A stretch of 55,249 nucleotides of DNA, filler included, from Sphacelaria rigidula (lineage: Eukaryota), in assembly GCA_964200075.2 (NCBI GenBank). It is 6 parts of 6 records of this genome, joined end to end, with 100 filler letters (N's around TTAATTAATTAA, not from the genome) between each part and the next. Parts side by side here need not be neighbours in the genome. Positions count along the whole stretch, not along the records: positions 36,901 to 46,025 come from CAXNAA020009243.1; 5 more parts are not named here. One strand, 5' to 3'. The notes below the pieces were generated by a model that saw nothing but the letters and a program-made list of their open reading frames with translations, searched no databases and was not told the origin of the DNA. Positions 6,091 to 46,125 of the stretch are shown here, piece after piece. Every line of letters begins with the position of its first letter. Positions within the stretch are counted from its first letter, which is position 1. The translations under genes and the position numbers were made by a program.

Positions 6091-6894
6091 AATATACTGT
6101 TGTCGCGTATTCAACGGTACAGGGACAGCATCAACAGCTAAAGTCATGCTAGGATAAGACGGGGGGTATTTTGGGCCGTTGCTTCCACTAAATTCAACTT
6201 TGAACCGATTTTAGGAGCAACGATCTACAGAACGGGCGTGTTGCCGATGAATAACTCTCATTCATTCTGCTTGACGCCGTTTTACCTAAATACACGCACA
6301 GGGCGAGTATGTCAGGTTGTCCGAAACATTTATGAGTCTTTTTCCCCTGGAATCAAACACCCAACCTATGGCAGCACGGCTCTGTACATGCTCTCCTGCG
6401 CTGTACGAGTAACACCGTATGGGTGGGCGCAGAGTGCAAGCGCAGAAAAGCGCGGCGCGACTTGTACACTTTCAACTCATGACACCGACCACGTGGTGTT
6501 CGGAACAGAAAAGACTCAACCCTGAAAAGTTGGCCACGGTCAACACCTGCGTGGTAAAAATAAATAAAAACAAACCTGGGGTTTGAGCGTAAACATTCCA
6601 GTCGTTTCTCGCTTCATCCCTGAGTTCTATTTTTTTCTCCGAAACTCTCTATTATAGATGTATTTACAGGTTACTGTAGCTGCACTGCATGCCGCGCGCA
6701 GCAGGATCAGCGTACACATAGACATGTACCGTCTGCACAACCGCAGAAACGATCGCTCATGGATGTTGGAGCAGCTACGGGTTGTTCCCGATACACAATA
6801 GCACAGACAGTTCACCGCAACAGCACAGACAGTGCTGTGACGAGCTACTTACGGCTTTGGGATGGTGGTGGGGACGGGGAGGGGGGAGGGGCGG

Positions 6895-7300
6895 CGTACT
6901 CATTTGTTGCTTGCCTTAGTCGTTTGACCAGTGATCACGCATCCATTTCGAGACGGAGCACCGTTCCTACTCCTAGTAGAGACACCTCCACCATTTAGGT
7001 GCTCATTATGTTCCTTTCATACATTCCACAAAAACCCTTTACTAATCTCATCCCCGTCGTATTTCGCCGTCTGTGGCCACCATTTACCTCCTAGTATAGC
7101 CATCGCTTTCTCGCTACTGCCTAATGCATCAAACGATTTCATGCCACCTTCGTTCACGTCTCGCATTTTCCCCTCTAGCACGTCTGGTTCCTCCTTGTAT
7201 ACTATACTTTACATTCTGGGACTACATGTCTTACGCTCTCCATTGCTTTGCCACGTGGCAATTCTGTGCACCTACTTCTTCCCCCTCTCAACTACTGGTA
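6895..7300 (-). mobile_element. Non-LTR retroelement family A, 3' fragment (ORF C-terminus plus terminus)
   Basis: Minus strand encodes VLEGKMRDVNEGGMKSFDALGSSEKAMAILGGKWWPQTAK...GGVSTRSRNGAPSRNGCVITGQTTKASNK* with an internal stop. G-tracts on both sides. Homologous to 17010-17276 and 37710-37992. Confidence 0.75.
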
Positions 7301-9125: not shown

Positions 9126-9225
9126 NNNNNNNNNNNNNNNNNNNNNNNNNNNNNNNNNNNNNNNNNNNNTTAATTAATTAANNNNNNNNNNNNNNNNNNN
9201 NNNNNNNNNNNNNNNNNNNNNNNNN
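9126..9225. other. Artificial contig spacer (Ns with central TTAATTAATTAA six-frame stop linker)
   Basis: 100-bp block. Identical blocks occur at 18351-18450, 27576-27675, 36801-36900 and 46026-46125, exactly 9225 bp apart. Confidence 0.98.
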
Positions 9226-9365
9226 TGCCAAGATTGTTCGGCCCGAAGCCTAGTGATTCAGCTTGCACTTGGATGACAGCCAACAATGAGTTGCTTTATT
9301 CTGTGGTATCGCCACTCCCAGAGACAGCCCACTGCTTATACACTGCCTCACGGGTGTCCAACCAG
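9226..9365 (-). mobile_element. Non-LTR retroelement family B fragment (cut by contig end)
   Basis: Aligns with 38185-38312 (agattgttcggcccgaagc...ggtatcgcca...cttatacact...gggtgtc). Followed by a G-run. Confidence 0.7.
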
Positions 9366-9588
9366 CTCAAGGGGGGGGGGGGCGCCAAGCCCACGCTCAG
9401 TGTGTGCACCATGTACACTTCAAATGTCGACACACCCAAAATATTCTCACGAAACTGGAGGTGATAAAACTGCTAAAAATACCAAGTCCGAAGCGATCGG
9501 CGGTAGTTCACATCAATACAACAACCCGACCCCCCGCCTCCTCCTCCCCTAAAGACGCAATGGATACGTTTCTCTGTGCTGCCCTCAC

Positions 9589-12379: not shown

Positions 12380-12604
12380 GTCGTCCCGCATTCGTCCCAG
12401 CCACTACCATGCCGGTTTTCAAAAACACGTACAGTACTTGCTTTCCGGTATGCCATTTACTAAAAGTTGCAAACTGCCGTTTCTCGGGCAGCCAGGAGAC
12501 AGAGTCAAGCGTCAAGCAGCTGCACGCTGGGCCGAGGGGCCCCATATCGGGAAATGACGGCACCAAGTCGCCCAAACCTCGTCCTGGGGCCAAAGGAGGG
12601 GGGG

Positions 12605-12672
12605 GTACTCATTTGTTGCTTGCCTTAGTCGTTCGACCATTGACCACGCATCCCTTTCGAGACGGAGCACTA
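12605..12672 (-). mobile_element. Non-LTR retroelement family A, short 3' end with G-rich TSD-like flanks
   Basis: gtactcatttgttgcttgccttagtcgttcgaccattgaccacgcatccctttcgagacggagcac with AGGAGGGGG on both sides. Confidence 0.8.
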
Positions 12673-16071: not shown

Positions 16072-16150
16072 GTACTCATACCCATGATCTTGCATGCCGT
16101 AGCCATATGATCATTGACCTTGCATCCCTGCAAAGCGGGGACGGAGTACG
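16072..16150 (-). mobile_element. Non-LTR retroelement family B, 3' end
   Basis: gtactcata...tgatcttgcatgccgtagccatatgatcattgacc is shared with 38023, 19755 and 37663. G-rich flanks. Confidence 0.7.
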
Positions 16151-16721
16151 CCGGCTTTTTGCCGGACGGGACGGGGAGGGGCTTCAAAATTTCATCGAAC
16201 AACACCCGTATGTACTATCCAAAAAGTGTTTCATACAAGCTTTACCAGATGCAGTCGTGGGACAGATGGGAAACGTCGAGATCCGTTCGGTTGATCTACA
16301 CGCGCTTTGATTCAATCAGATTGATTCATCAGGCTTCATGGGGAATGGCTCAGGGAGCACTCGTACTTCGCATGCCCTAGCTGTGAGATGACGCTTTCAC
16401 GCGCCCGCAGTGGGACGGGGTATCGGCTGGAATGGGGGGTGGGTGGACCATGGCTCAAGATACCGAGGGAAAAACAGCCAAGCTAGGAGTGTTTCCGATG
16501 GTTTTAATGCTTCGCTACGTCTGACTCATTGCCTCTCCAGTAGGAGGCCGCGAAACAGAAGCTACCGTGGGCATTTTCATGTGCGGAAACGCGCACACAC
16601 CGCCCACGCCACATCATTGATCTTCATACTTTCGTGTGAAACGCGTGCAACCGTGAGCTGTAGTGACGTATCGTAAAGCATGGGCGTGGCTTTGTTTTTT
16701 ACTCTGTTCATGACAGCTACC

Positions 16722-16886: not shown

Positions 16887-17009
16887 CTTTCAAGTACTTT
16901 TTGGCATACACACTGGCTGCTTCCGACCAGCCAGTGGACCCCACGTCGCCCCTTCCCCCCCTCCCCCGCCCCGTGCCCCTCTGACAACATAACAAGGTTT
17001 GAGGGGATC

Positions 17010-17276
17010 TGTGGGAGGGAAACGAAGGTGGCATGAAATTGTTTGGTACTTTGGACAGTAGTGGGAAAACGCTCGCTCTACTGGGGGATAGGTGGTGGCC
17101 CCAGATGGCAAACAAGAAGGGATCAGATATGCGGAAGGTTTTGAGTCATGTATGGAATAAATGGTATGAACGCCGAAGTGTTGGAGGTGTCTCTACCAGG
17201 AATAGGGACGATGCTCCGTCTCGAAAGGGATGGGTGGTCAATTATCAAACGACTGAGGCAAGCAAATAATGAGTAC
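17010..17276 (+). mobile_element. Non-LTR retroelement family A, 3' fragment
   Basis: Encodes MKLFGTLDSSGKTLALLGDRWWPQMANKKG...APSRKGWVVNYQTTEASK*. Ends ...aataatgagtacacac followed by a long C-run. Confidence 0.75.
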
Positions 17277-17622
17277 ACACCCCCCCCCCCCCCCCCCCCC
17301 CCCCCAACATAATACAAATACAATACGAACCGCAGCAAACACAAAAAGAACACAGCANNNNNNNNNNAAGGGGGGGGTGGTCATTTATAAAAAGAAACGG
17401 GAAAAAAAATAAAAAACTCCCCCCCCCCCCCCCCCCCTTCCCTCACATAATAGGATATGAAGCGGTATACGTAGCCAAGTGAACGAAACTGTAGTTCACA
17501 ACGATTTATGTGAGGATGAGTAGATTCAATATGGGGACATGATCAACACCGTTCGGCTTCAAGACATTGTTCAGCTTTAGTCTATATGTGTGTGGCAGGT
17601 CGAACGTAAGGGAAAGTACAGC

Positions 17623-18350: not shown

Positions 18351-18450
18351 NNNNNNNNNNNNNNNNNNNNNNNNNNNNNNNNNNNNNNNNNNNNTTAATT
18401 AATTAANNNNNNNNNNNNNNNNNNNNNNNNNNNNNNNNNNNNNNNNNNNN
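18351..18450. other. Artificial contig spacer
   Basis: Same N-TTAATTAATTAA-N block. Confidence 0.98.
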
Positions 18451-19687: not shown

Positions 19688-19782
19688 TTCATTGACCATT
19701 GACCACGCATCCCTTTCGAGACGGAGCATAGGGGGAGGGGGGGAGGGGGGGGGGTACTCATGATCATGCATTCCATAGTCAT
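19688..19782 (-). mobile_element. Family A fragment plus G-tract plus family B 3' end
   Basis: ttgaccattgaccacgcatccctttcgagacggagca, then a G-run, then gtactcatgatcatgcattccatagtcat. Confidence 0.7.
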
Positions 19783-19900
19783 AAGGGTAGGCAAGAAAGT
19801 TGCCAACGGACTCAAGGATACCTATTTCATGAGGGAAAATCGGATCGAAACGGGCTCAGTATCGTGTACGATTCCGGATGCCGAATTCAAACCCACAAAT

Positions 19901-27575: not shown

Positions 27576-27675
27576 NNNNNNNNNNNNNNNNNNNNNNNNN
27601 NNNNNNNNNNNNNNNNNNNTTAATTAATTAANNNNNNNNNNNNNNNNNNNNNNNNNNNNNNNNNNNNNNNNNNNN
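27576..27675. other. Artificial contig spacer
   Basis: Same N-TTAATTAATTAA-N block. Confidence 0.98.
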
Positions 27676-28381: not shown

Positions 28382-31300
28382 TGTGCCCCCTCGTTGTCCC
28401 CCATACTCGTCAAGGCGATATACCTCTTGAACAACGTGACTGGGAGCATTTTCGTCAGAATATCAAAGTGCTGCCGCTCTGAACCTACGTGCACGATCCT
28501 TACGGCTTTTGCCCTAACCCAGTCCCAAATGATTTCCATTTCACGCCTATGTGCTTGTTGCGATCTTCGCTGAGAGGGTTTCCGGCAAGAGCGTTTGCCT
28601 CTCTCGTTGTCCTAAAGAAATAACAACATCATAGTCCACCGCTCGTCACAGCACAACCCTTGGTCGTATGAAAGACAGGATCGACCTGACAAACATACAT
28701 ACATTCCTTCGCCCCTTTAGCCATTGCCATATACTCAGCCTCAGTGGTGGACAAGGTAACGCAGTGGTGCGTGCGACTGTCACTGGATGCTGCCACTCCT
28801 CCGTACATTATCGCCACCCCGGAAACCATTTGCCTGCCCGTCTCTTTCTTTGCGTAGTCGGCATCGCAGTACACTGAGAACACACTCCCTCCTGTACTGA
28901 ACGTAAAAGCGTGGTTTCTAGTCCCTTTCAGGTATGCTAGCACTTCCAACACTCCTTCCCAGCGCCTCTCACATGAATCATGTGACTGCCGGGCTAGAAC
29001 CCGGGCTGATATGGCTATGTTGGGCCTAGTCACACCAGCCAACCTCATCAATCCTTGTACTGCACTACCGTGGTCTATCTACCACCGTGCCTCCTGCTTA
29101 GCCGGTGCCAAGTCCGCAGAAGTTGAGGCGGGAAAATTATTCTTCTGTTTGCGCCTGCAGGAGTTCCTCCATCTCGTCTATCGCCATTTCTAACCCTTCC
29201 CGGTCAGCTGCCGCTCCTGTCGTACTGCGCGTGTGACCTGCCGTTTGGGGAGATGGAAACAACTCACCGTTGAATGCAGAGGGGCGTAGCTCCGTCCTTT
29301 AAAGTTCAGGAGCTCCACCGCCCCGCCCCGTCGTTGTGCTCGGGGGTGTCGACGGTAACGCCAGCAATGACGACGGGATTGATGTTGAGAGTCGGTGTGG
29401 ACGGTGTTGTTGTCGGCGCCACCGATGACTGCGGTGTAGGCGGCGCCGAGCCCCGATCATCGAGGGGATCTTGAACGGGGTTTTGTGATATCGCTCCGCC
29501 TTCCCCGCCTGCGCAAGGAGATGGTGAAGTCATTTCTGCCCCGCCCCCCGCCATTAGCGGGGGTTCGCGGTGTGGCGTCGTCTGCCCTCCCTTCGGACTT
29601 GGGTAGCGAGAAGGACACAGGTTGGGGACCGCGCTCACGGCTGGGGTTGGCTCTGTGGACTCGCTGCCGGCCGTTGGGATCGCTTGTGCTCTTGTGTGTG
29701 TTGATCTTGGGATGGGCCGTCGGAGTCCTTTCCCCTCCGAGCATCCTCGGCAAGGTCTCATCTCGCCGCGCAGCTCCACTCCGAGCTGCTTAGCTGTTTG
29801 GCGCAGTAAATCGTCGAGTGCGTGGGCGTGATAACAGTGAAAGTCGTAATATCAATGAGTCATTGATATCAACCACTCGGGGGTCGGATGGTGCCCTCAG
29901 GGCAATCACAGCGCAGGCTGACGCGTGCTTGTCGTGGCTTGCTAGATCTAGTCGGTGGGCATACATTTTGAGGAGTTTATGTTGAGTGGTATTCAGGGTG
30001 TTGTCTGACTTCAACTCAATCCTAAAGCCGTCACTTGTTCCGATCTAGGTGCGACCTGCAGTAGAGATCCTAGTCAGTGACCAACGATGGTGACGGATGC
30101 CTGATGTATGGTCTACATTTTCGACGTATAGAACTACACTGCGTCCGTCAGATCTAAAAGCGAGAATCAAATTTCCTCTGCCCACGATCGGGTAAGTACC
30201 GCCGCTCGCACACCACAGTGCCCTATCCCTGCATTCTCAGTACTCTGTCATCTTACTAAAATCTGGCGGAAAATGCTGGATTGCCCCCGTGTCAAACACC
30301 TACGGTCCGCCCCCATCTTGCTGCTCTACATCCTCCTTCTAAACAACGAAAGCACACTCGCCTATGGGTGTCTTCGGCGGCCTTCGTCATGTTAATGCTA
30401 GTGAAAGCCTCCGCATCAGCATTCAAACGATGTGGAGTCGTCGTCGACGACGTCGCTCACCACGTCCACCGCCATGACCACATCCTCTCAAGACTTTGGG
30501 TAGTCAAGTAGCTGGTTCCCTTCCATTCTGCACTTTCCACAGTACCTGCTGGACAGTCTCTCGACCATTGTGTCGTCATCTTCTGACAGATGTGGCATGG
30601 CCACGTCGTCGTAGCTCCCGACGGCTATTCGGCGGTGGAGTCGACGACTGGCTGCTTTTTCCCTGGTCCCCGCTGCCACCGCGACCTGGGTCCTGGCTCT
30701 TCCCCGGTGTTCCTTTCCGGCGCAAGCCGTTAGTTCTTCCGGGTTGACCCTTGGCAGCAAAGACCTGGTCGCCTGAGGAAGTCGTTTTTCCCTTGACGAG
30801 TTCCTGCTAGAAACTTGTCGATCCGAAACGATTTTTGACGCGACCCCACCACGATTTCTCTCGTGAGTGGGCCCTCCCGGTAATCCAGTACTTGCCTCTG
30901 GAAAATGTAATCCGGGGGGAGAACAGTCACAAATTTAGGGAGGGTTTGGGCCTCCGTCAGCTTGATGTAGTTGTCATATGATCTCAACTGCCTCGCCACT
31001 TCTTCCATCTCGATCAGGTTTTGGATCGGGTCATCACAAACGCCAATCTTCACATCACCATACTTCTCTAGCAGTGCCAATCTAGCCCCGTTCGTCTTGG
31101 GGCTGTAGAACTCGTTCAGTTAACGCCGCACACCTGCAGGAAAAGGAATTTGGAACATAATATGTCGGTCCCTTTTGTGGTCCAGACTCGCCACTAACAT
31201 CTGCCTTGCTCCAATCTTTGCTGCTATCATGTCTCTTCCGTGCCTTGCGTCTAGGAAATAAACGGACAGCTCCGTGTTCCCCACCTCCACATTGTGCAAA

Positions 31301-36800: not shown

Positions 36801-36900
36801 NNNNNNNNNNNNNNNNNNNNNNNNNNNNNNNNNNNNNNNNNNNNTTAATTAATTAANNNNNNNNNNNNNNNNNNNNNNNNNNNNNNNNNNNNNNNNNNNN
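36801..36900. other. Artificial contig spacer
   Basis: Same N-TTAATTAATTAA-N block. Confidence 0.98.
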
Positions 36901-37413
36901 CTACTGATTATCTTGCATTTGGATAGCTGCCTACAATGAGTTGTACGGTAGGGGGGTGATGAAGTTAAGAGTATCGCGGAGCTTATGCAAAAAGCTGGGA
37001 ACCATGGTCCATACAGTCAGTCAATAGTCGTCTTACCTTGTGTGTTGTCGGTCGGTGTCTTTCAAAACGAAAAAAAAAGCTAAGGAGACACACAGTGGCT
37101 AATACAGAAAGTAGGCCGCTGAGGGTCATTTTTTTCACGCTCCCACACCTTTCGATGTTTGATGTGTGATGTGATGTGATGTGATCGATTGGCTCATGAA
37201 TCGTCGCACATCCATTGATCCCCTACAAACTCACCCGCGGTCAAATTACTGACGGTTGAGTGCAGCAAGACACACACATCGCGAACAAATCAAGTAAATC
37301 ACACCCTTAAACCCACCACATCCGTGCGTCTCAAAACTGGTACGAGCAGTGGTAAGCGCCGTACAATTACACAGCCTCAAGCTTCAAGACGAAATAAAAA
37401 ATAAAAACCCCAC

Positions 37414-37596
37414 CTCTTCATACACGGCCACGGTGAGGCCGGCGCCCGTGAGCCCGTCGAGCGTCTGTTGGACGTTCTTGCGTGGACATCCAGCGCGGAT
37501 CTCTTGCCCCATTTTGTTGAGCCCTGCGTGCTGCATCATCATGACAGCATCCACGCCGTACGTCTCGTAGAACTCCCCAACACGGGTTAGTAACAC
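37414..37596 (-). CDS. MSH1: Plant-type MSH1, MutS domain I exon (exon 4)
   Basis: 61 codons, CAG/GT: VLLTRVGEFYETYGVDAVMMMQHAGLN...RAGCPRKNVQQTLDGLT..GLTVAVYEE. Contains the FxE mismatch-recognition motif and the AGLN/AGCP/QTLD.LT signature of plant MSH1. Confidence 0.92.
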
Positions 37597-37662
37597 CTGT
37601 TGCGTGAATATGTGCGATTGTGCGCCACGCATGTTTTTCATGCTTGTCAGGAGGGGGAGGGG

Positions 37663-38315
37663 TGTACCAATGATCTTACATGCCGTAGTCAAAAGGGGAG
37701 GGGAGGTGGGTACTCTTTGCTACTTGCCTTAGCCGTTTGACCATTGACCACGCATCTCTTTCGAAACGGTGCACCGTTCCTACCACGAATAGGGACACCT
37801 CCAACATTTAGGTGCTTATTGCGTTTCTCTATGCACTACACAAAAACCTTTTACAAATCTTATCCCTATCTGTTTCGCCGTCTGTAGCCATCATCCATCT
37901 CTCGTATAGCCATCGTTTCTTCCCACTGTCTAATGCGTCAAACGATTCCATGCCACCGTCGTTCACGTTCCGCATTTCCCCCTCTAGCACGCCCGTTCCT
38001 CCTCCAAGGGGTGGGGGGGGGTGTACTCATGATCTTGCATGCCATAGTCATATGATCACTGACCCCCATCCCTGTCAAGTCGGGCACGCTGGGTTTTCGC
38101 CGGACCAGGCTCGCAATCACCGCGAAGCGCGAAGCGCCGTGGTGTGCTCGGCGAGTCGCATGAAGGATGAGCTGCATCCTCCTGAGATTGTTCGGCCCGA
38201 AGCGTACTGATTATCTTGCCTTTGGATGACAGCCTGCAATGAGTTGCTTAACTTCTGGTATCGCCAACTCCAGAGGCAGCCACGGCTTATACACTTGCCC
38301 CATGGGTGTCTCACC
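37663..38315 (-). mobile_element. Chain of non-LTR 3' ends (B fragment, A fragment 37710-37992, B fragment 38023-38315) separated by G-tracts
   Basis: Each unit begins at a G-run followed by gtac. Sequences match the other family A and B copies. Lies in an MSH1 intron. Confidence 0.75.
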
Positions 38316-39015
38316 ATCTAAATCCTACGCAGTACGATCATCTCCTCTGCGCGGAGTTGAGGTTCTCCCACCCCGCACAATTATGATTTTGCTTGATCAC
38401 CATAATGATTATCGCAAAAAACGCAGGGGCGCAAACAAAAATCGGTAACCTGGTTGCTTAGGGTACGTAGTGCGTGGCGTGTTTTATAGTGTCATCGCCA
38501 ACCGATGTCAACCTCATTGGGGGAAGAGAGGGGCAGGAGGGAGGGAGTGGGCGGTGCTGTGTGTCCAGTACAGGGAATAAGAAACAGGAGGCGCCCTGAA
38601 TGAACGCCCGGGAACGTGTAATATAAACGGATTGATCCACCGTGCTTGTGCGTTCTGTTATCTTCTTCAAACAGCACGTGTTCAACGAATAAAATAACAG
38701 TCAGCTATTGCAATGCTGTGAATGCAGCCAATTACGATGATGATGATGATGATATATATATATATATATATGGTAGTGCAGCAGTACGGGGTACATTTGA
38801 CTCAAATGTACACGATGGCGATGAAATACTGCAGCGTTAAGAACGGGCTACACACGCACAGAAATGCAATTACGACGATACTACTGCACACGGACAGAGT
38901 ATATACATGTACGTATGATACATGCACTCGTGTGTATACGAAGTAAACAACTTGAAATCCAATACTGTTATTTTCCAGCACTACGACACGCATTCTCGAC
39001 AAGTGCTATAGGTAC

Positions 39016-39184
39016 CTTCGTAGGATGCTTCTCTTTTTGATCCAGAACGAACTGTAGCAGTGAGCCCTTGCCGACTGGTCCTCCCCGAGTAGACACGTAA
39101 CCCAGCTTGTTTGAGCTGGAGAGCTGCATCGCTACCTTCCTTGCCTCTGTTTTGGTCAGGCTCATTAAGGGACCCATCCAGTAC
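39016..39184 (-). CDS. MSH1: Plant-type MSH1, N-terminal conserved exon (exon 3; acceptor may be a few codons further upstream)
   Basis: YWMGPLMSLTKTEARKVAMQLSSSNKLGY...GSLLQFVLDQKEKHPTK parallels the WW...L....N.LG.....G.L......K...P segment preceding VLL.RVGEFYE in plant MSH1. Phase-0 GT donor joins exon 4. Confidence 0.8.
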
Positions 39185-39734
39185 CTGTCTAGCCCATGGC
39201 TGCTCAGCCGTCACCGCGCCACCCCGCCCCCGCATACGATCGGGCGCAGCAACGTCAAGTTCCGGGCTACGGTGCCAACATATTTGCAGTAGAAGTAGCG
39301 ACAAATCTTGTAACGTGATGAAGTGGCGTTCTTCGTGTGTCAAGTCGGCAAGATTTGAGCGGCTGTTCCAGTAGAAACGTCGCAAGGCGCTTAAAACACA
39401 CACACGCACTGGAAACAACATAGAAAGAGCTACGCCCATGCCCATCTTGTGAACACGGCTGAATTTGTAGTGAAACAATGAATGTATGATGAACAATTAA
39501 ATCGGTCAACCAAAACGGATTAGCAAACAGCGCTGCGTGCATGCAGAGCAGAATCTGCAGCTCTTCTGCGTCATTACAACGCAAAAGATCACTACAAACA
39601 CTGAGAAGCGAGTGAACCCATGCATACCCGATTGGCCGACCGCACGTCCATGGCCACCCGACAGACGATAACAAAACGTAACGGTAGCATGGATATGCAC
39701 GCACCTCCCCCCGTATTCCGCACAAAAAACATAC

Positions 39735-42700
39735 CTGACATCAACGACCTCCCTCAGCCTGTCCTCATAAAACTCTTCCCCAGTGTTGTTTCTTTCCCAT
39801 CCCCCGGCCCCCGTCGTGGACCTTCCAACGCTCCACCCCTCCTCCACTTCACCCACGCCCGCGCTCATTTCACCCCCTTCCTCCAACCCTGCCCAACGCC
39901 ACTCCTGCTTCCTCGGCCCCATCGCTCCTTCTATCGGCACAAAAGACGACGAGGAAGGCAGGGGGCTTCCTGGCTCTAGTGTATGTGACTGCTTAGGAGG
40001 ATCAGGGAAAGTGTACTTAGGATGAAGGGGTCCGGGTACCGGGTTCTGTCGCGGCTGGGCGTTCTCGTCGCGACCTGCCTCTACCTCCTGCTGTGCTGCT
40101 GCCCATGGCGGTATTGGCGATGATGATGGTGGGGAAGCGACCGTAGTGCTGCTGCTACTGCCAGGGAGAACATACCGGTCCCGTGGAGAAGGCCTCGAGA
40201 CCGAGGACGGGGACGGCTCTCGGTCATGTTCCGGGAGTTCTCGGAAGCGTTCTGGGGTTGGTTTGAACGGTCCTGGTGGTGCTGCCGCTGATTCTGCGGC
40301 TGCGGGAAGGCGGTGTTGTCGTTGTTGCTGCTGTTCCGGTTTTTTCTCGCTCGCCAACATTCGCGATGATGGTGATGGTGACTTGCTGCTCTCAGGTGCT
40401 TTGTTGGGAAATACTGCCGCCGACTCCACTGCTGCTACCGCCGCCTGTTCAGATGCTTCCCATCCACCGACGAGCATTTGCTGAGCTCCTCCGATCATGG
40501 GGTCGACCGTGGATGGTAACAGCTGCTCCACGCTTCGGTCTTCCGCCGACGCCGTCGCCGAGGTTGCGGCAGCAGTCGAAGGCACCGACCGGTTAGACAG
40601 AGAGCGTGCTGCCGGATCAGCAGTCATCACTGTCGATGGCACCTCAAAAGCATCGCCGCCCACATTTTCCCACAAGGAAGGTCCTGACGTTTGAGGTATC
40701 TCCTCCAGGTCCCTAAAGGACAATTCTCTCATAGGCGCCGGCGCTACCGGTGCAACTACATTTATTCCACCCCCAGCCCCCTCTGCCACGCTGTCGCGCT
40801 TGTTATCCCCTCCCTTTCCACTATCAGCCTTTTCTCGGGTACTCATAGCCGGTGCTTCCGGTACTTGTGTTCCATTCTGTTGCTGCGCTGCGGCATCCTG
40901 CTGCCGTCTCACTACATCTGGCGTTTCTACTGCGGCCGCGGTCGCCACACGCGAGACGTGTACGGCGTTTGTGGTAGTGGTAGCATTGCCGGAAGTTTCG
41001 GCGGGGGCAATGATCGGTTCTCCTCCCTTTGAGGAACTGTCGCTGGGGTGTGATTTTGTCGTTCGAATTGTCGTTGTCGTTGCTACTGCTGTGATGTTTG
41101 ATACCCGTGATGGTGTCGCTTCGATATCCGCAGCAGGTGTAACCAAGGAGGTGTTTGTTGTAGACCCTTGTCTCTTCGGCTTATCGTTCGTTTTCTCCTT
41201 GCTATTAGCGCTTTTAATCGTTCCGGTCATCTTACCGGTGTCACCTTTGTTGTTGGTGCTGCTACTGTGGGCGGCACTGGAGGACGATTCCAGTTCGAGC
41301 TGTTGAGAAGAGTTTTCTCTCACTTGCAGCGACTCCTGCTTCTGCTTCTCATTCTGCTGCCCACTACTTTCTTTCACGTCTACAGACGAAAAAGCCGTCT
41401 TCTCCGCCGATGTGCCCTCTGCTGGCGGTATCGATACTTCAGCGGGAGACGGTGAAACAACCACAGTTTCACTTCCAACAATTCTGTCATTGACAGCAAC
41501 TTCTTCCGTCGTCTTAGGCAGTGCCTTTTCCTCGGGTTGTGCCACGGCTATTGCTGTAGTGTTGGTCACCCTCGCCTCTGCAGAACCTGGGGACACCTTC
41601 GGCTTGGTGGCTGTAGTATCCTTATCCTTTTTGGTGCTAGTCTTATCATACCTCCGTTCCTTGCCAGCCTTGCTGCTAGTGCTAATGCCTCTGCCGACCG
41701 TGACTACCTCCGTAGCGGTGTTGCCGTCATTGCCACCGCCACTAGCACGAGATCCGACGACAACCTCATCTACCAGCGCCAATCCTGCGGGATACTTTGA
41801 TGAAGAGTTTTTGCCGCTAGCTATAGCCTCGACTTCCATCATCGCTGCTACTTCTATGGTACTATTTGCTTGTTTCGCCGTAGAAACCGACTTGGTGACA
41901 GTAGTAGCACCACCTGTAGCCGTAGCCTCCTTGCCCTTGACATTGCTGCTTTTGCGATCCTTCCTACTACTATTGGCACTGCTGCGAACAGTATCGCTAC
42001 TGCTTACCGTGACGTTTTGCACAGCACCTTCACCATCACCCTTACTCGCACGACACTCGGCAGCAGTTTCGTTCACCACTGCCAATAGCTCGGGAGACGT
42101 CAAAGAACCATTACCGATGCTGACAACGCCCTCGACTTCCAGCGCCGCTGCTGCTGCCGCGGTACGGTTTGCTCCTTCCAATGACGATACTGCTGCAGCA
42201 GCAGCCGTTGTATTTATTGCCTCGGCCTCCACAGAACTGGTCAATGCACTCGGCGTATCGGCAACAATATTATCACCCTTTGTTATGCCAGCGTCCTCAC
42301 ATTTTCCCTTGCTATCCTTCAAGTCCTTGCTGGCGCCGCTGCTACTACGGTCTTTACTGCTGACCATGCCAACCTGCACAGCGTCATGGACCTCAATCTC
42401 GAGCACACGAGACACTACGCCCTCTTTCATCACTGCCCTTATCTCCGTAAACGCCGAAGAATTACCTCCGCTAGCGGCAACCTCATCTTGCGGCGGCGCT
42501 GCCGCACTGTTGATCGTGGATTCCTGCACAGCGCCGTTGACATCACCCTCGAGCGCACGGGGCTCCACACCCTCCTGCATCACTGCCAGCACTTCTGCAG
42601 ACGTTGAAGAATTACTACCATTCACAGAAACCTCTACTTCCAGGGGCACTGCCGCTGCTGTCTTATTGCCCCAATTATGGTCGCTCCTGATATCCTTCTC

Positions 42701-43094
42701 CTCACGAGGATGCACACCCTCTTCGTCATTTGCAACCACCTTTGGAACCACCGAAGAATTGCTACCGCGGCTGGAAATGACCTCGACCTTGCTTATCTCT
42801 GCTACTGCGGTATCACTTTCTTCATTCTCCTTCACTACAGATCCTGAGCTTTTTTCCTTCGCCACCTTTGGTTCCTTACGTTTGGCCGTTGCCGTCGCTG
42901 CTTGTTCTGGCTTCGTAGGGGCTACAGCTTCCGGTACTAAGACTGCTGCCTCTTGCAGTGGGGCCTCCGGTGCGGCTTCTTCAAGCGTCACGGCGGTCGC
43001 CTCTGCCTCTTCCGGTAAGGAATTCAATTTTGCCGCTGATCCGTGAAGTGAGCGGGCCGCCTGGTTGTAAGCCCTCGCGGCGTCTACCTCGCAC
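39735..43094 (-). CDS. Exon 2: second half of AP2 domain plus ~1100-aa low-complexity linker
   Basis: TAG acceptor, GG+G=Gly, then CEVDAARAYNQAARSLHGSAAKLN. 3360 nt open. Ends at a CAG/GTATGT donor in phase 2. Confidence 0.85.
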
Positions 43095-43953
43095 CTATGC
43101 CAACACACAATGTATAATACCAGTAGTTGGGGCCACAGTATGATCGCACACTAATTTTGGAACAGTACAACCCGTCAACCGCGGGTGGACAGTTTGACTG
43201 CAGGCGGCCATCGGGAGGGGAGATGTATGAAATAGGGGTGCGTGTTTGGGAAAGTCTTGATACCTACACTGCTACTGTACCTGCCACGTGATTCACACGA
43301 GCGAGTGACATGTTCGCTTTTCAACCGATATTGGCACTTGTAGTAAGCAGTTTCTTCAGCGCTGAGTACAACCTGCCATAATCGATATTTTTTTGGACAC
43401 TCCCGCGCCAGTGAGTACCGTACTATACTCTACTATGGGCAGTACCAGGTTCACATTGTCGCCCACTGTATATTTACATCCCTGGAAATAAAGGACCGAA
43501 ATTCGGCCTAGAGGCAGATTGAGAGGTCATGCGTGTTTCAGAACAACAACAGAACCATTTCGGCATTTCAGCCCCCATAATTGTTGACACCCGTACTGTC
43601 TTCATGGTGTAGAACAGTACCCAGCATACGCTGGTGGGACATGTACGGACTTATATGACCAACATCGTGGACAAATGAAAGCAAGTACGAGTAGCATACT
43701 GTTCTTTCTAACTTCGATTCTCTGGTAAATTACGCCGGCCACGCCACCAAAAGTAGTCTCACTGGAACTGTATCGTCGAGATGCGTCGGTGGACGTGATT
43801 TCTTGGAGAATACAATCATAATTTCCTGATGTGTCGAAGAACATCAAGGTTTGAAATTTCGTCTCGGGGGAATGGGGGGGGGGGGTGTTATACACCATCA
43901 AGTTCAACAGGGTACATGTACAACCTCCACCACCACACACTCCTCTCTCTCAC

Positions 43954-44483
43954 CCGAAGGTACCCAGCTGGCGAAGCCCCCCCTTCGAAGAAATTCGAGC
44001 CTTCCATTTACCCTTGGGCCCTCCAACTACTCCTCTATACCCAGATGGGATATAGGATCGGCGGGCGGACGGTTCCGGGGCGGCGGGGTCTCTTTCACTG
44101 GGTCCGCTGCTACGAGTGCTCTCGGCTGGGGCAATAGCTGGCGACGCCGCTGGTGACGCTCGAGCTTTTCCCCCGCCTCCTTTCGAAGATGTGCTGGCCA
44201 TGCGTGGTAGGACACGAGAAGTAGCATGCTGGGGTGCTAGTTGTTGAGAAGAGGAGGAAACGGGGGAGGTTGATGTTGGGAGCTGTCGACTGCTGCGCGA
44301 GAAGGCCTGCCTCATAGTGTGCTTCACGAAACCATTGGTGACAGCCAGCGGCATGGACAACACTGAAGCGAAAGCAAACAATGGAGGATTATTCAGGCCT
44401 GTGACAGCATGCGAGCAGTACAGTAGTGTTATTACTACAACAAAGAACCACCAGGGCAGTATTCTTCCCAGTGTCCTCCTCAT
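43954..44483 (-). CDS. Exon 1: signal peptide, Ser/Arg-rich transit-like peptide and first half of AP2 domain
   Basis: MRRTLGRILPWWFFVVVITLLYCSHAVTG-L..., then an S/R/T-rich stretch lacking acidic residues, then SGYRGVVGGPKGKWKARISSKGGLRQLGTF. GTGAGA donor, phase 2. Confidence 0.85.
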
Positions 44484-45324
44484 GTACGACTACTGCTCTG
44501 TTGTGCTAGAGCACATGTATCGCTGGTGCACTTTTCGTCTTTCGTCCGATCAAATCATCGGGTTTCCTGGAGAATGCAAATCATGACGGTGGCATCGGCG
44601 TGGCTGACACAGTTTGGGTATAGGGATGATTTGAAAAAAGGTACATATATCTTTGATGACGCCATTATCTTTACCCGTAGTACAAACGTCGCCTAATCAA
44701 CTTGACTGAGTACAACAACAGCGAGACTACTTAATGTTCGGAGTCTACTCGCTATAGTCCGCCTCCCTTACTTGTTAAACCGCACAGTGCCTCCTCGTCA
44801 CGACGAAACACCCCCACACCGAAACGCGAAAGATCGAGCTTTTAGAGCTTTTCAGCCGCATTATTTCGTCATGCGAGACGGCATATGCGCGGGCCATCAT
44901 GTATCACTGGACTGGGAAGTGAAGCCGCAAAACAGCATAGCAGTTGCTCTCAACCCCAGAGTAGCCTGAAGAAAATACTAGATCGTTCCGCACATCCCCT
45001 GGACTTTGCCCCTCTAGTCTATGTGCCACCGTACCCTGTGACCACCACGTCTTTTCATCGGCGTCGGATTCACGAGGCTCATAGCACATCACTACATACA
45101 GTTGAAATGATCACAGAGATACACTGACGGGGGAGAACAGTTGAATCAGTGGTTGCGGTCGCCAGCACTGGTTCCTGTGGGGGAAGGCGCGATCGTTACT
45201 GTGGGTGAAACAGACTCAATCCCGAACGATATCACGGAGGATACCACCATCAGCGCCAACACCAAGAACGACAACAGAAATGAACTCCAAAACACTTTAG
45301 TGTCGCTAGAAAACCAGCGTAGAC

Positions 45325-45544
45325 ATGGCAGGGAACGAATACAGTACTAGTACTGATACTTTATCGCTCGACGAAGACAATACCCGCGTCGACATGGCAG
45401 AAAACGGCGTGGACTCCGGGACAATGAAGGCAGACGCAAGCTACTTGTACGAGGACAACAGTATTATGCTGGGTTTCACTAAGCTCAGTATCGCGTCGGG
45501 CACACGGCACCTCCTCGAGAATATATCTGGTTTCGTCGTTAAAG
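45325..45544 (+). CDS. Probable first exon of an ABCG-type ABC transporter (truncated)
   Basis: ...LGFTKLSIASGTRHLLENISGFVVKG resembles the L.F..L......LL..ISG....G segment just before Walker A. AAG/GTATGT donor. Confidence 0.6.
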
Positions 45545-45898
45545 GTATGTGTCTGTGTCTGTGTCTGTGCGCGCGCGCGCGTCCTCCTGTGTTCATGCAA
45601 GAAAATAGGAGAGGGTGAAGTCAGGAGTATCCGTAAAATGAAATCAAGACATTTGGTGCTTTTTTCAGCGGGGTTTCGGGCGGTGTGGTGGGGGTGGCAT
45701 CCGGCGAATGTTTCCCTCTCCCTAACTAAGTGCTTAGAGTTCTTCTCCAATAAGTGGTATTGTCTGCACTTTTGGTCTCAGTCCGGACGCGAATGCCTAA
45801 ATGACTTGTGTATGGGGGTAAATCTGGTTGATACGATAAATGTGTGTATTGCCGTCCCATTTATTCTGGGCGCCAGTCTACACCTTTCGATATATATA

Positions 45899-46025
45899 TA
45901 TCGCTCGACGAAGACAATACCCGCGTCGACATGGCAGAAAACGGCGTGGACTCCGGGACAATGAAGGCAGACGCAAGCTACTTGTACGAGGACAACAGTA
46001 TTATGCTGGGTTTCACTAAGCTCAG
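45899..46025 (+). repeat. Exact 127-bp duplicate of 45362-45488, preceded by a SINE 3' fragment (45841-45890) and (TA)n
   Basis: Identical sequence running up to the contig end. Confidence 0.9.
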
Positions 46026-46125
46026 NNNNNNNNNNNNNNNNNNNNNNNNNNNNNNNNNNNNNNNNNNNNTTAATTAATTAANNNNNNNNNNNNNNNNNNN
46101 NNNNNNNNNNNNNNNNNNNNNNNNN
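46026..46125. other. Artificial contig spacer
   Basis: Same N-TTAATTAATTAA-N block. Confidence 0.98.

Follow-up and report, generated by a model that had tools for sequence, protein, structure and literature searches.

An AP2 domain and plant-type MSH1 in one probable brown-algal protein, from a nuclear gene of Sphacelaria rigidula

The window analysed in our study is a stretch of 55,249 nucleotides (nt) from Sphacelaria rigidula (GCA_964200075.2). It consists of six pieces of 9125 base pairs (bp), joined by N44-TTAATTAATTAA-N44 spacers at 9126-9225, 18351-18450, 27576-27675, 36801-36900 and 46026-46125, with a spacing of 9225 bases, and pieces that stand side by side here may lie apart in the genome. 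The gene described here is confined to the piece at 36901-46025 (CAXNAA020009243.1), where four minus-strand exons encode a presequence-like N-terminus, an AP2 domain, a long linker and the first domain of a MutS protein of the plant-type MSH1 family. We read this segment as roughly the first two-thirds, from the 5' end, of a nuclear gene of a brown alga, giving a single mRNA and one chain of at most about 2340 amino acids (aa). The features are listed in the direction of the gene; X1, X2, X5 and X8 are public runs whose contigs were aligned with the piece.

44484-44779, minus strand: 5' leader; the RNA-like contigs reach 44708 (X1) and 44779 (X2, X8)
43954-44483, minus strand: coding part of exon 1, 530 nt, ending in phase 2; presequence-like N-terminus and first half of AP2
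43954-44039, minus strand: first half of AP2, YRGV... to ...LGTFG, residues 149-177 (translation)
43095-43953, minus strand: intron 1, 859 nt, GT..AG, which splits AP2; joint in X1, X2 and X8, absent from X5
39735-43094, minus strand: exon 2, 3360 nt, a single open frame from the second half of AP2 through the linker to the end motif
43022-43094, minus strand: second half of AP2, CEVDAARAYN... to ...AAKLN, residues 178-201 (translation)
39800-43021, minus strand: low-complexity linker, rich in S/A/V/E/T/G/P; 22-23% identity among orthologues
40673-40726, minus strand: conserved linker motif ELSFRDLEEIPQTSGPSL (regular expression; block of 67% identity)
39735-39799, minus strand: conserved end of exon 2, WERNNTGEEFYEDRLREVVDV and 2 nt of a split codon, abutting the donor
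39200-39734, minus strand: intron 2, 535 nt, GTATGT..CAG; joint 39199/39735 in X1, X2 and X8, absent from X5
39016-39199, minus strand: exon 3, 184 nt, N-terminal helices of the MSH1 core (..YWMGPLMSLTKTEARKV..)
37597-39015, minus strand: intron 3, 1419 nt, GT..AG (RNA-like contigs and splice sites)
37414-37596, minus strand: exon 4, 183 nt, MutS domain I with GEFYE and AGLN / AGCP / QQTLDG (Pfam and translation)
36901-37413, minus strand: start of intron 4 (GTGGGG), which runs to the end of the piece

The preliminary description of this locus, made from the sequence alone, had placed here four minus-strand exons with GT-AG borders and compatible phases. This arrangement held, except for the start of exon 3, which had been put at 39184. 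The exons at 44483-43954, 43094-39735, 39199-39016 and 37596-37414 (minus strand) were found to join into 4257 nt, or 1419 codons with no stop, and each of the three introns (859, 535 and 1419 nt) contained GT..AG ends. The acceptor of intron 2 lies at 39201-39200 and exon 3 starts at 39199, which is 15 nt upstream of the earlier position; both starts are in frame. An in-frame stop stands upstream of the ATG at 44483, and six upstream ATGs were found within the 296-nt 5' leader, where they may exert translational control. Without splicing, translation through exon 2 would stop at TGA 39508-39506, within intron 2. The junction of exon 2 with exon 3 (39735/39199) keeps the frame through a split codon, AG followed by C, which encodes serine and is succeeded by HGLDRYWMGPLM...

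The splicing was seen in assembled contigs. Eight public runs contain the stretch, and four of them, guessed to be RNA, cover 0.52-0.59 of the sampled words; the exons were calculated to account for about 0.58 of the same stretch. The RNA status of X1-X4 is the guess of the tool, and no run is recorded as RNA. We took X1, X2 and X8 as cDNA-derived because their contigs lack the three GT..AG introns that are kept in the DNA run X5. The spliced contigs, of 7254 nt in X1 and 7325 nt in X2 and X8, run from the 5' leader through the four exons and then contain 2769 nt more, which lie beyond exon 4 and outside the piece. They align at 37411-37594, 39014-39199, 39735-43091 and 43951-44708/44779, with joints at 43091/43951 ('cut +3', giving 43094/43954), 39199/39735 and 37594/39014 ('cut +2', giving 37596/39016). 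The joints skip 1419, 535 and 859 nt, whose plus-strand ends CT..AC correspond to GT..AG on the minus strand. The DNA-like run X5 was found to contain an unspliced contig at 38780-45391 with none of the three joints. RNA cover was zero in the bin 39341-39645, an observation that counts only since a contig joins across it. The claim of one gene with one frame from AP2 to MSH1 was thus supported, because the RNA-like contigs remove the stop at 39506-39508 and the brown-algal open reading frames (ORFs) described below agree; the joint 39735/39199 was present in X1, X2 and X8, and no transcript of the AP2 part with its end at the 39506 stop appeared among the contigs, which join across it.

The identity of the downstream part was given by Pfam, which called MutS_I on the exon-4 ORF (E 8.7e-8, 32.8 bits, cut-off 20.6) and no family on the ORFs of exons 1, 2 and 3. 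The FYE and AGLN/AGCP/QTLD motifs that had been assigned to MutS domain I are present in exon 4. The exon-4 peptide was found to have 68 relatives among 107 candidates. The closest named relatives were those of Hapterophycus and Scytosiphon (95% identity), followed by Discosporangium (82%), and then Phaeothamnion, Chrysoparadoxa and other ochrophytes (62-77%), an order that places the source of the window among the brown algae. The full-length relatives in the last group carry PF00488, and P0038, P0044 and P0053 carry PF01541 also; MutS_V and GIY-YIG were confirmed by Pfam in P0033, P0038 and P0053. The Scytosiphon orthologue aligns with residues 15-177 of E. coli MutS. Exon 3 is homologous to other ochrophyte MSH1 proteins (tblastn with P0006, P0010, P0027 and P0015). 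The 2769-nt continuation of the spliced contigs agrees with the 877 aa found beyond the corresponding point of Chrysoparadoxa P0027, and together with the exons it gives a full protein of up to 1419 + 923 = 2342 aa. An ATPase and a GIY-YIG nuclease would therefore be expected downstream, from this RNA continuation and the architecture of the relatives. The contig end that the preliminary description had noted downstream of exon 4 is explained by the layout of the window, because the 9125-bp piece stops at 36901, at the joining spacer; no MSH1 exons were found in the other pieces by tblastn with six MSH1 relatives, whose matches were exons 3 and 4 only.

The AP2 domain was recognised once its two halves had been joined. 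The joined domain aligned with residues 315-378 of P0072, a database protein returned by the exon-2 search, at 55% identity over 64 aa and across the exon junction (pairwise E 1.9e-20), and it aligned with the remaining three repeats of P0072 too. According to Pfam, P0072 contains AP2 (E 8.5e-29) in four stretches beside HNH_3, and its residues 315-363 correspond to profile positions 1-53 of 54. The AP2 identity is well supported through this transitive test, because the alignment is with a repeat that Pfam itself calls AP2, and the earlier claim of an AP2 domain split by intron 1 stands with it. When taken singly, the halves gave weak tblastn matches to HNH and homing endonucleases of phage (E 0.01-0.5), which agree with an AP2 identity but are silent on origin.

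The arrangement was found to be kept in other brown algae; the brown-algal assignment of the orthologue clusters of exons 1 and 2 rests on named MutS_I matches and sequence likeness. A search with exon 2 (1119 aa) among 1.84 billion representatives returned 10 matches, namely its own ORF, P0072 and eight genomic ORFs. Six of these eight contained one frame from [CS]E[VL][DE]AARAYN...LHG.AAKLN.LP[DE]E to W[ED]R[DN]..G.E[FL]Y.[ED][RK]L...VV[DN]V, ending exactly at the donor; the remaining two begin within the linker, and the donor motif was present in all eight. The exon-1 search gave 14 clusters of 136-286 aa, all with the conserved ...YRGV.GG.[KR]G.WKA.I.SKGG.R.LGTF[GE]. Thirteen of them stop exactly at LGTF[GE], and P0083 continues for 20 residues into the intron. 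Because the ORFs reach ...LGTF[GE] there, the intron that splits AP2 lies at the same position in all 14. Among 10 sequences the mean pairwise identity was 84% in the first half of AP2 and 35% in the N-terminus; among 7 sequences it was 74% in the second half of AP2, 22-23% in the linker, 67% in the FRDLEEIP block and 66% in the block at the end of exon 2. The AP2 halves are the best-conserved parts. Between two conserved ends the frame stays open across several hundred barely conserved codons, which is good evolutionary evidence for the translation of AP2, linker and end motif in a single chain.

The link between the end of exon 2 and MutS domain I was also found in two protein models from other species. 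The annotated Scytosiphon protein P0006 opens with MGEELYEERLRALVSHK..EYWMGPLM.. and leads on to MutS domain I, and the partial Discosporangium protein P0010 contains more than 120 low-complexity residues, ..DPFEERLAML..HPYWAEHL.. and then MutS domain I, so that both models connect an EE[LF]YEERL-type motif with MutS domain I. In the AlphaFold model of P0006 the exon-2 end (EELYEERL) is predicted to be helical, with a predicted local distance difference test score (pLDDT) of 75-83 and a model mean of 81.8. The exon-1 and exon-2 ORFs pair on contigs of equal size three times (7132, 14070 and 3242), which is a hint of a shared contig and not proof. The AP2 domain that had been described upstream of MSH1 is thus found in related species, in 14 exon-1 clusters and six of eight exon-2 clusters and with two models that join the end motif to MutS domain I. 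The fusion appears to be common to several brown algae, and Discosporangium already has the linker. Outside the brown algae, the full-length ochrophyte relatives P0012 and P0015 are without AP2, and Chrysoparadoxa P0027 is N-terminally partial. The fusion looks real and conserved, because the spliced RNA-like contigs and the brown-algal orthologues both agree.

The linker, which had been estimated at about 1100 aa, was found to be of low complexity and about 1095 aa long in the translated joined frame. The span from AP2 to the donor is 1119 aa here versus 422-551 aa in six other clusters, and the extra ~600 aa lie between AP2 and the ELxFRDLEEIP..GPSLW motif (40727-43021, minus strand). Degenerate protein repeats of about 50 aa were seen in the linker by eye. 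Tandem Repeats Finder returned no DNA-level array in the linker, and therefore the extra ~600 aa are not a recent DNA-level tandem array. The ELxFRDLEEIP..GPSLW motif was found by regular expression in seven of nine sequences, and P0070 and P0073 contained it with small changes; it matched no Pfam family and may be a docking motif.

The N-termini of the Sphacelaria protein and its orthologues begin with M[KR]R/W and have a basic start, followed by a hydrophobic stretch. After the hydrophobic stretch A-F was present in 13 of 15 sequences, with D-F and I-Y in the other two. The next region has many S/T/A/R residues and few acidic ones; by inspection and counts the first D/E of the Sphacelaria protein is residue 121. 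The plastid presequence of ochrophytes consists of a signal peptide and a transit peptide with an ASAFAP-type motif. The N-terminal pattern resembles such signal-plus-transit peptides and not a mitochondrial presequence, and it would fit import into the plastid. An internal methionine lies ahead of AP2 in the Sphacelaria protein and is not conserved in the orthologues.

Several further observations concern the introns, the upstream region and the other pieces. Within intron 2, an ATG-started frame at 39300-39445 (minus strand) reads MGMGVALSML..., with a hydrophobic beginning, in a frame that differs from that of exon 3. The RNA contigs skip it, and therefore an alternative first exon at this place has no support. 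Intron 3 contains a high-copy dispersed repeat at ~37695-38322, whose summed contig depth was 10^4-10^6 in all runs. Copies of 72-92% identity were found at 6883-7195, 17003-17291, 9231-9370, 12594-12670, 16079-16167, 19692-19783, 774-825 and 36902-36943. Upstream of the gene, two ORFs at 45310-45618 and 45832-46025 (plus strand) share a near-identical stretch (..DEDNTRVDMAENGVDSGTMKADASYLYEDNSIMLGFTKL..), and therefore the region carries a duplication a few hundred bases long; Pfam returned nothing on the ORF at 45310-45618, which is the first copy. At 28632-31119 (minus strand), ORFs resemble by eye fragments of a long terminal repeat (LTR) retrotransposon polyprotein, and the four that were tried gave no Pfam match. 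Pfam was also without a match on seven ORFs from the other pieces and the upstream region.

A number of points weigh against the fusion as we read it. The two Pfam families named in the preliminary description fared differently, for MutS_I was returned and AP2 (PF00847) was called, at E<=1, on neither half taken alone. PF00847 was found in 0 of 68 MutS_I matches among proteins of up to 2000 aa, where the brown-algal ones were fragments, and exon 1 matched nothing among 3527 candidates of 309-2000 aa. An annotated full-length fusion could not surface in these protein searches, because a protein of more than 2000 aa is outside their range. The Scytosiphon model begins at the exon-2 end motif, and therefore the fusion was not predicted by its annotators. 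Neither the ATPase nor the GIY-YIG part was seen, as both would lie outside the 9125-bp piece. The RNA label of the spliced runs rests on the guess of the tool, and every run stands under one organism label. X2 and X8 are probably the same data, as their contigs are equal in size and depth. The evidence consists of contigs and not reads, in which transcript ends and isoform ratios are invisible and rarer forms lacking AP2 can escape.

With these points weighed, we consider it probable that brown algae possess a single-chain protein made of a presequence, AP2, a linker of 400-1100 aa and plant-type MSH1. The product is read as MSH1 with a DNA anchor because the relatives contain MutS_V and GIY-YIG and the RNA continuation fits. 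The splicing, the open frame, the identities of AP2 and MutS_I and the arrangement kept among brown algae are observations; the mechanism goes further, and for plastid import together with AP2 as the DNA anchor that holds MSH1, in the form given here, we see the chances as about even. The bipartite-looking presequence would direct the protein into the plastid, where AP2, on its long flexible linker, would act as an additional anchor on double-stranded DNA. This anchor would hold the MSH1 mismatch and recombination-surveillance ATPase and the C-terminal GIY-YIG nuclease on organelle DNA or nucleoids, and would raise the residence of the protein on plastid DNA or nucleoids. The idea parallels, in function only, the way in which AP2 modules deliver HNH homing endonucleases to their DNA.

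A stricter version, which we regard as unlikely, is that of an addressed repair nuclease, where AP2 would read specific plastid sites and station MutS/GIY-YIG at repeats, origins or nucleoid anchors. If true, break-induced gene conversion and recombination surveillance would be sequence-targeted and not purely lesion-driven. Slightly less probable again is a fusion that is real but has an AP2-linker part which is not a repair tether, being either cleaved after import to become a plastid DNA-binding or transcription factor, or serving in regulation or as an interaction arm. The long linker evolves fast and has a disordered composition, yet it keeps two short motifs, of which FRDLEEIP could bind a partner, and its variation from 422 to 1119 aa would be tolerable for a simple spacer or a cleavable region. 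However, no cleavage site or partner is known, and the single ORF and the conservation of AP2 fit a tether equally well, so that the data do not separate a tether from a cleaved or regulatory arm.

It is doubtful, somewhat more so than the preceding reading, that the fusion has its site of action in the mitochondria, both organelles or the nucleus, and not in the plastid alone. Plant MSH1 is dual-targeted according to the accessible text of 10.1101/2020.02.13.947598, and the internal methionine precedes AP2 in the Sphacelaria protein; but that methionine is not conserved, and the hydrophobic signal-like stretch with A-F in 13 of 15 sequences and the acid-poor region after it speak for the plastid. 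The least probable explanation, which we think very unlikely, is that of two neighbouring genes, an AP2 protein ending at TGA 39506-39508 and a separate MSH1, with the contig being a read-through, a minor isoform or a chimera: the unspliced frame does meet that stop, isoform ratios and transcript ends are not derivable from contigs, the Scytosiphon annotation begins MSH1 at the exon-2 end motif and a search among proteins of up to 2000 aa returned none annotated with both AP2 and MutS, but the joint 39735/39199 is canonical (GT..AG), frame-keeping, present in X1, X2 and X8 and absent from the DNA run, intron 2 is joined across and not covered by the RNA contigs, the end motif and donor are kept in all eight orthologous ORFs and the motif lies within the MSH1 models of two other species, and in six of eight clusters a single exon-2 ORF connects the AP2 half with the end motif despite a linker identity of ~22%.

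The single-chain fusion of AP2 with MSH1 bears on several matters. The very low mutation rates of plant organelle genomes, and the way in which these genomes recombine, depend to a major degree on MSH1, and a conserved AP2-bearing MSH1 would be a natural experiment on how MSH1 reaches DNA. Current brown-algal annotations split the AP2-MSH1 gene. At least one brown-algal AP2 gene is probably not a nuclear transcription factor, which bears on catalogues of transcription factors. The fusion is testable in Ectocarpus with existing genetics.

Plant-type MSH1, the lineage of Arabidopsis MSH1/CHM, has also been reported from stramenopiles, alveolates, haptophytes and cryptomonads. In the accessible text of PMC12292046 and 10.1101/2020.02.13.947598, plant MSH1 is described as keeping down point mutations and ectopic recombination in the two organelle genomes, and it is proposed to couple the recognition of mismatches and branched DNA to GIY-YIG cutting and homologous repair; the role of MSH1 outside green plants is given as an open question in 10.1101/2020.02.13.947598, as far as that text is accessible. 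The preliminary description had called the architecture unfamiliar, and a literature search, with subscription papers and supplements outside its range, found no paper that connects algal MSH1 or MutS with AP2; the term 'AP2' is absent from the accessible text of PMC12292046, a review of the MutS family. A scan of viral contigs with the MSH1 alignment gave 39 pattern matches, none of which was confirmed.

Among the known systems, the AP2/ERF and ApiAP2 transcription factors belong to the same AP2 fold family as the domain of the brown-algal fusion. In the fusion, AP2 comes behind a putative organelle-type presequence and shares its chain with a repair enzyme, which makes a role as a nuclear transcription factor unlikely. 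The accessible text of PMC4108028 lists the Ectocarpus AP2/EREBP gene Esi0356_0029 as a transcription factor, and that of PMC12629598 reports AP2-domain proteins in Ectocarpus; either entry may differ from the fusion gene. The HNH-AP2 homing endonucleases, such as P0072 with HNH_3 and four AP2 repeats, resemble the fusion in having AP2 in one chain with a nuclease-bearing DNA enzyme. Unlike them, the brown-algal form contains one copy of AP2, its expected nuclease is a GIY-YIG domain far downstream, and the gene is nuclear, intron-containing and conserved and is not a mobile element; Pfam found no HNH family in the four exon ORFs, which places the gene outside the HNH-AP2 group.

Other MSH1 proteins were found to carry additions at the N-terminus. 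The SAP-MSH1 protein P0024 contains SAP ahead of MutS domain I (27.0 bits versus a cut-off of 23.9), and the diatom-type proteins P0033, P0038 and P0053 contain a DNA_pol_A-like N-terminus that scores below the cut-off; the P0038 cluster includes a Chaetoceros protein. N-terminal accretion seems to be recurrent in the MSH1 family because of these additions, whereas both the SAP and the DNA_pol_A types are without AP2 and without the long linker of the brown-algal form. The fusion is nearest to plant-type MSH1 itself, with which it shares MutS domain I with FYE, nearest relatives by identity that bear MutS_V and GIY-YIG, a putative organelle-type presequence and an expected role in suppressing point mutation and ectopic recombination in organelles. 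It differs in the N-terminal AP2 and the linker of 400-1100 aa before domain I, neither of which is mentioned in the accessible text of PMC12292046 and 10.1101/2020.02.13.947598. We regard the AP2-MSH1 fusion as a plant-type MSH1 with a new, unexpected and conserved architecture.

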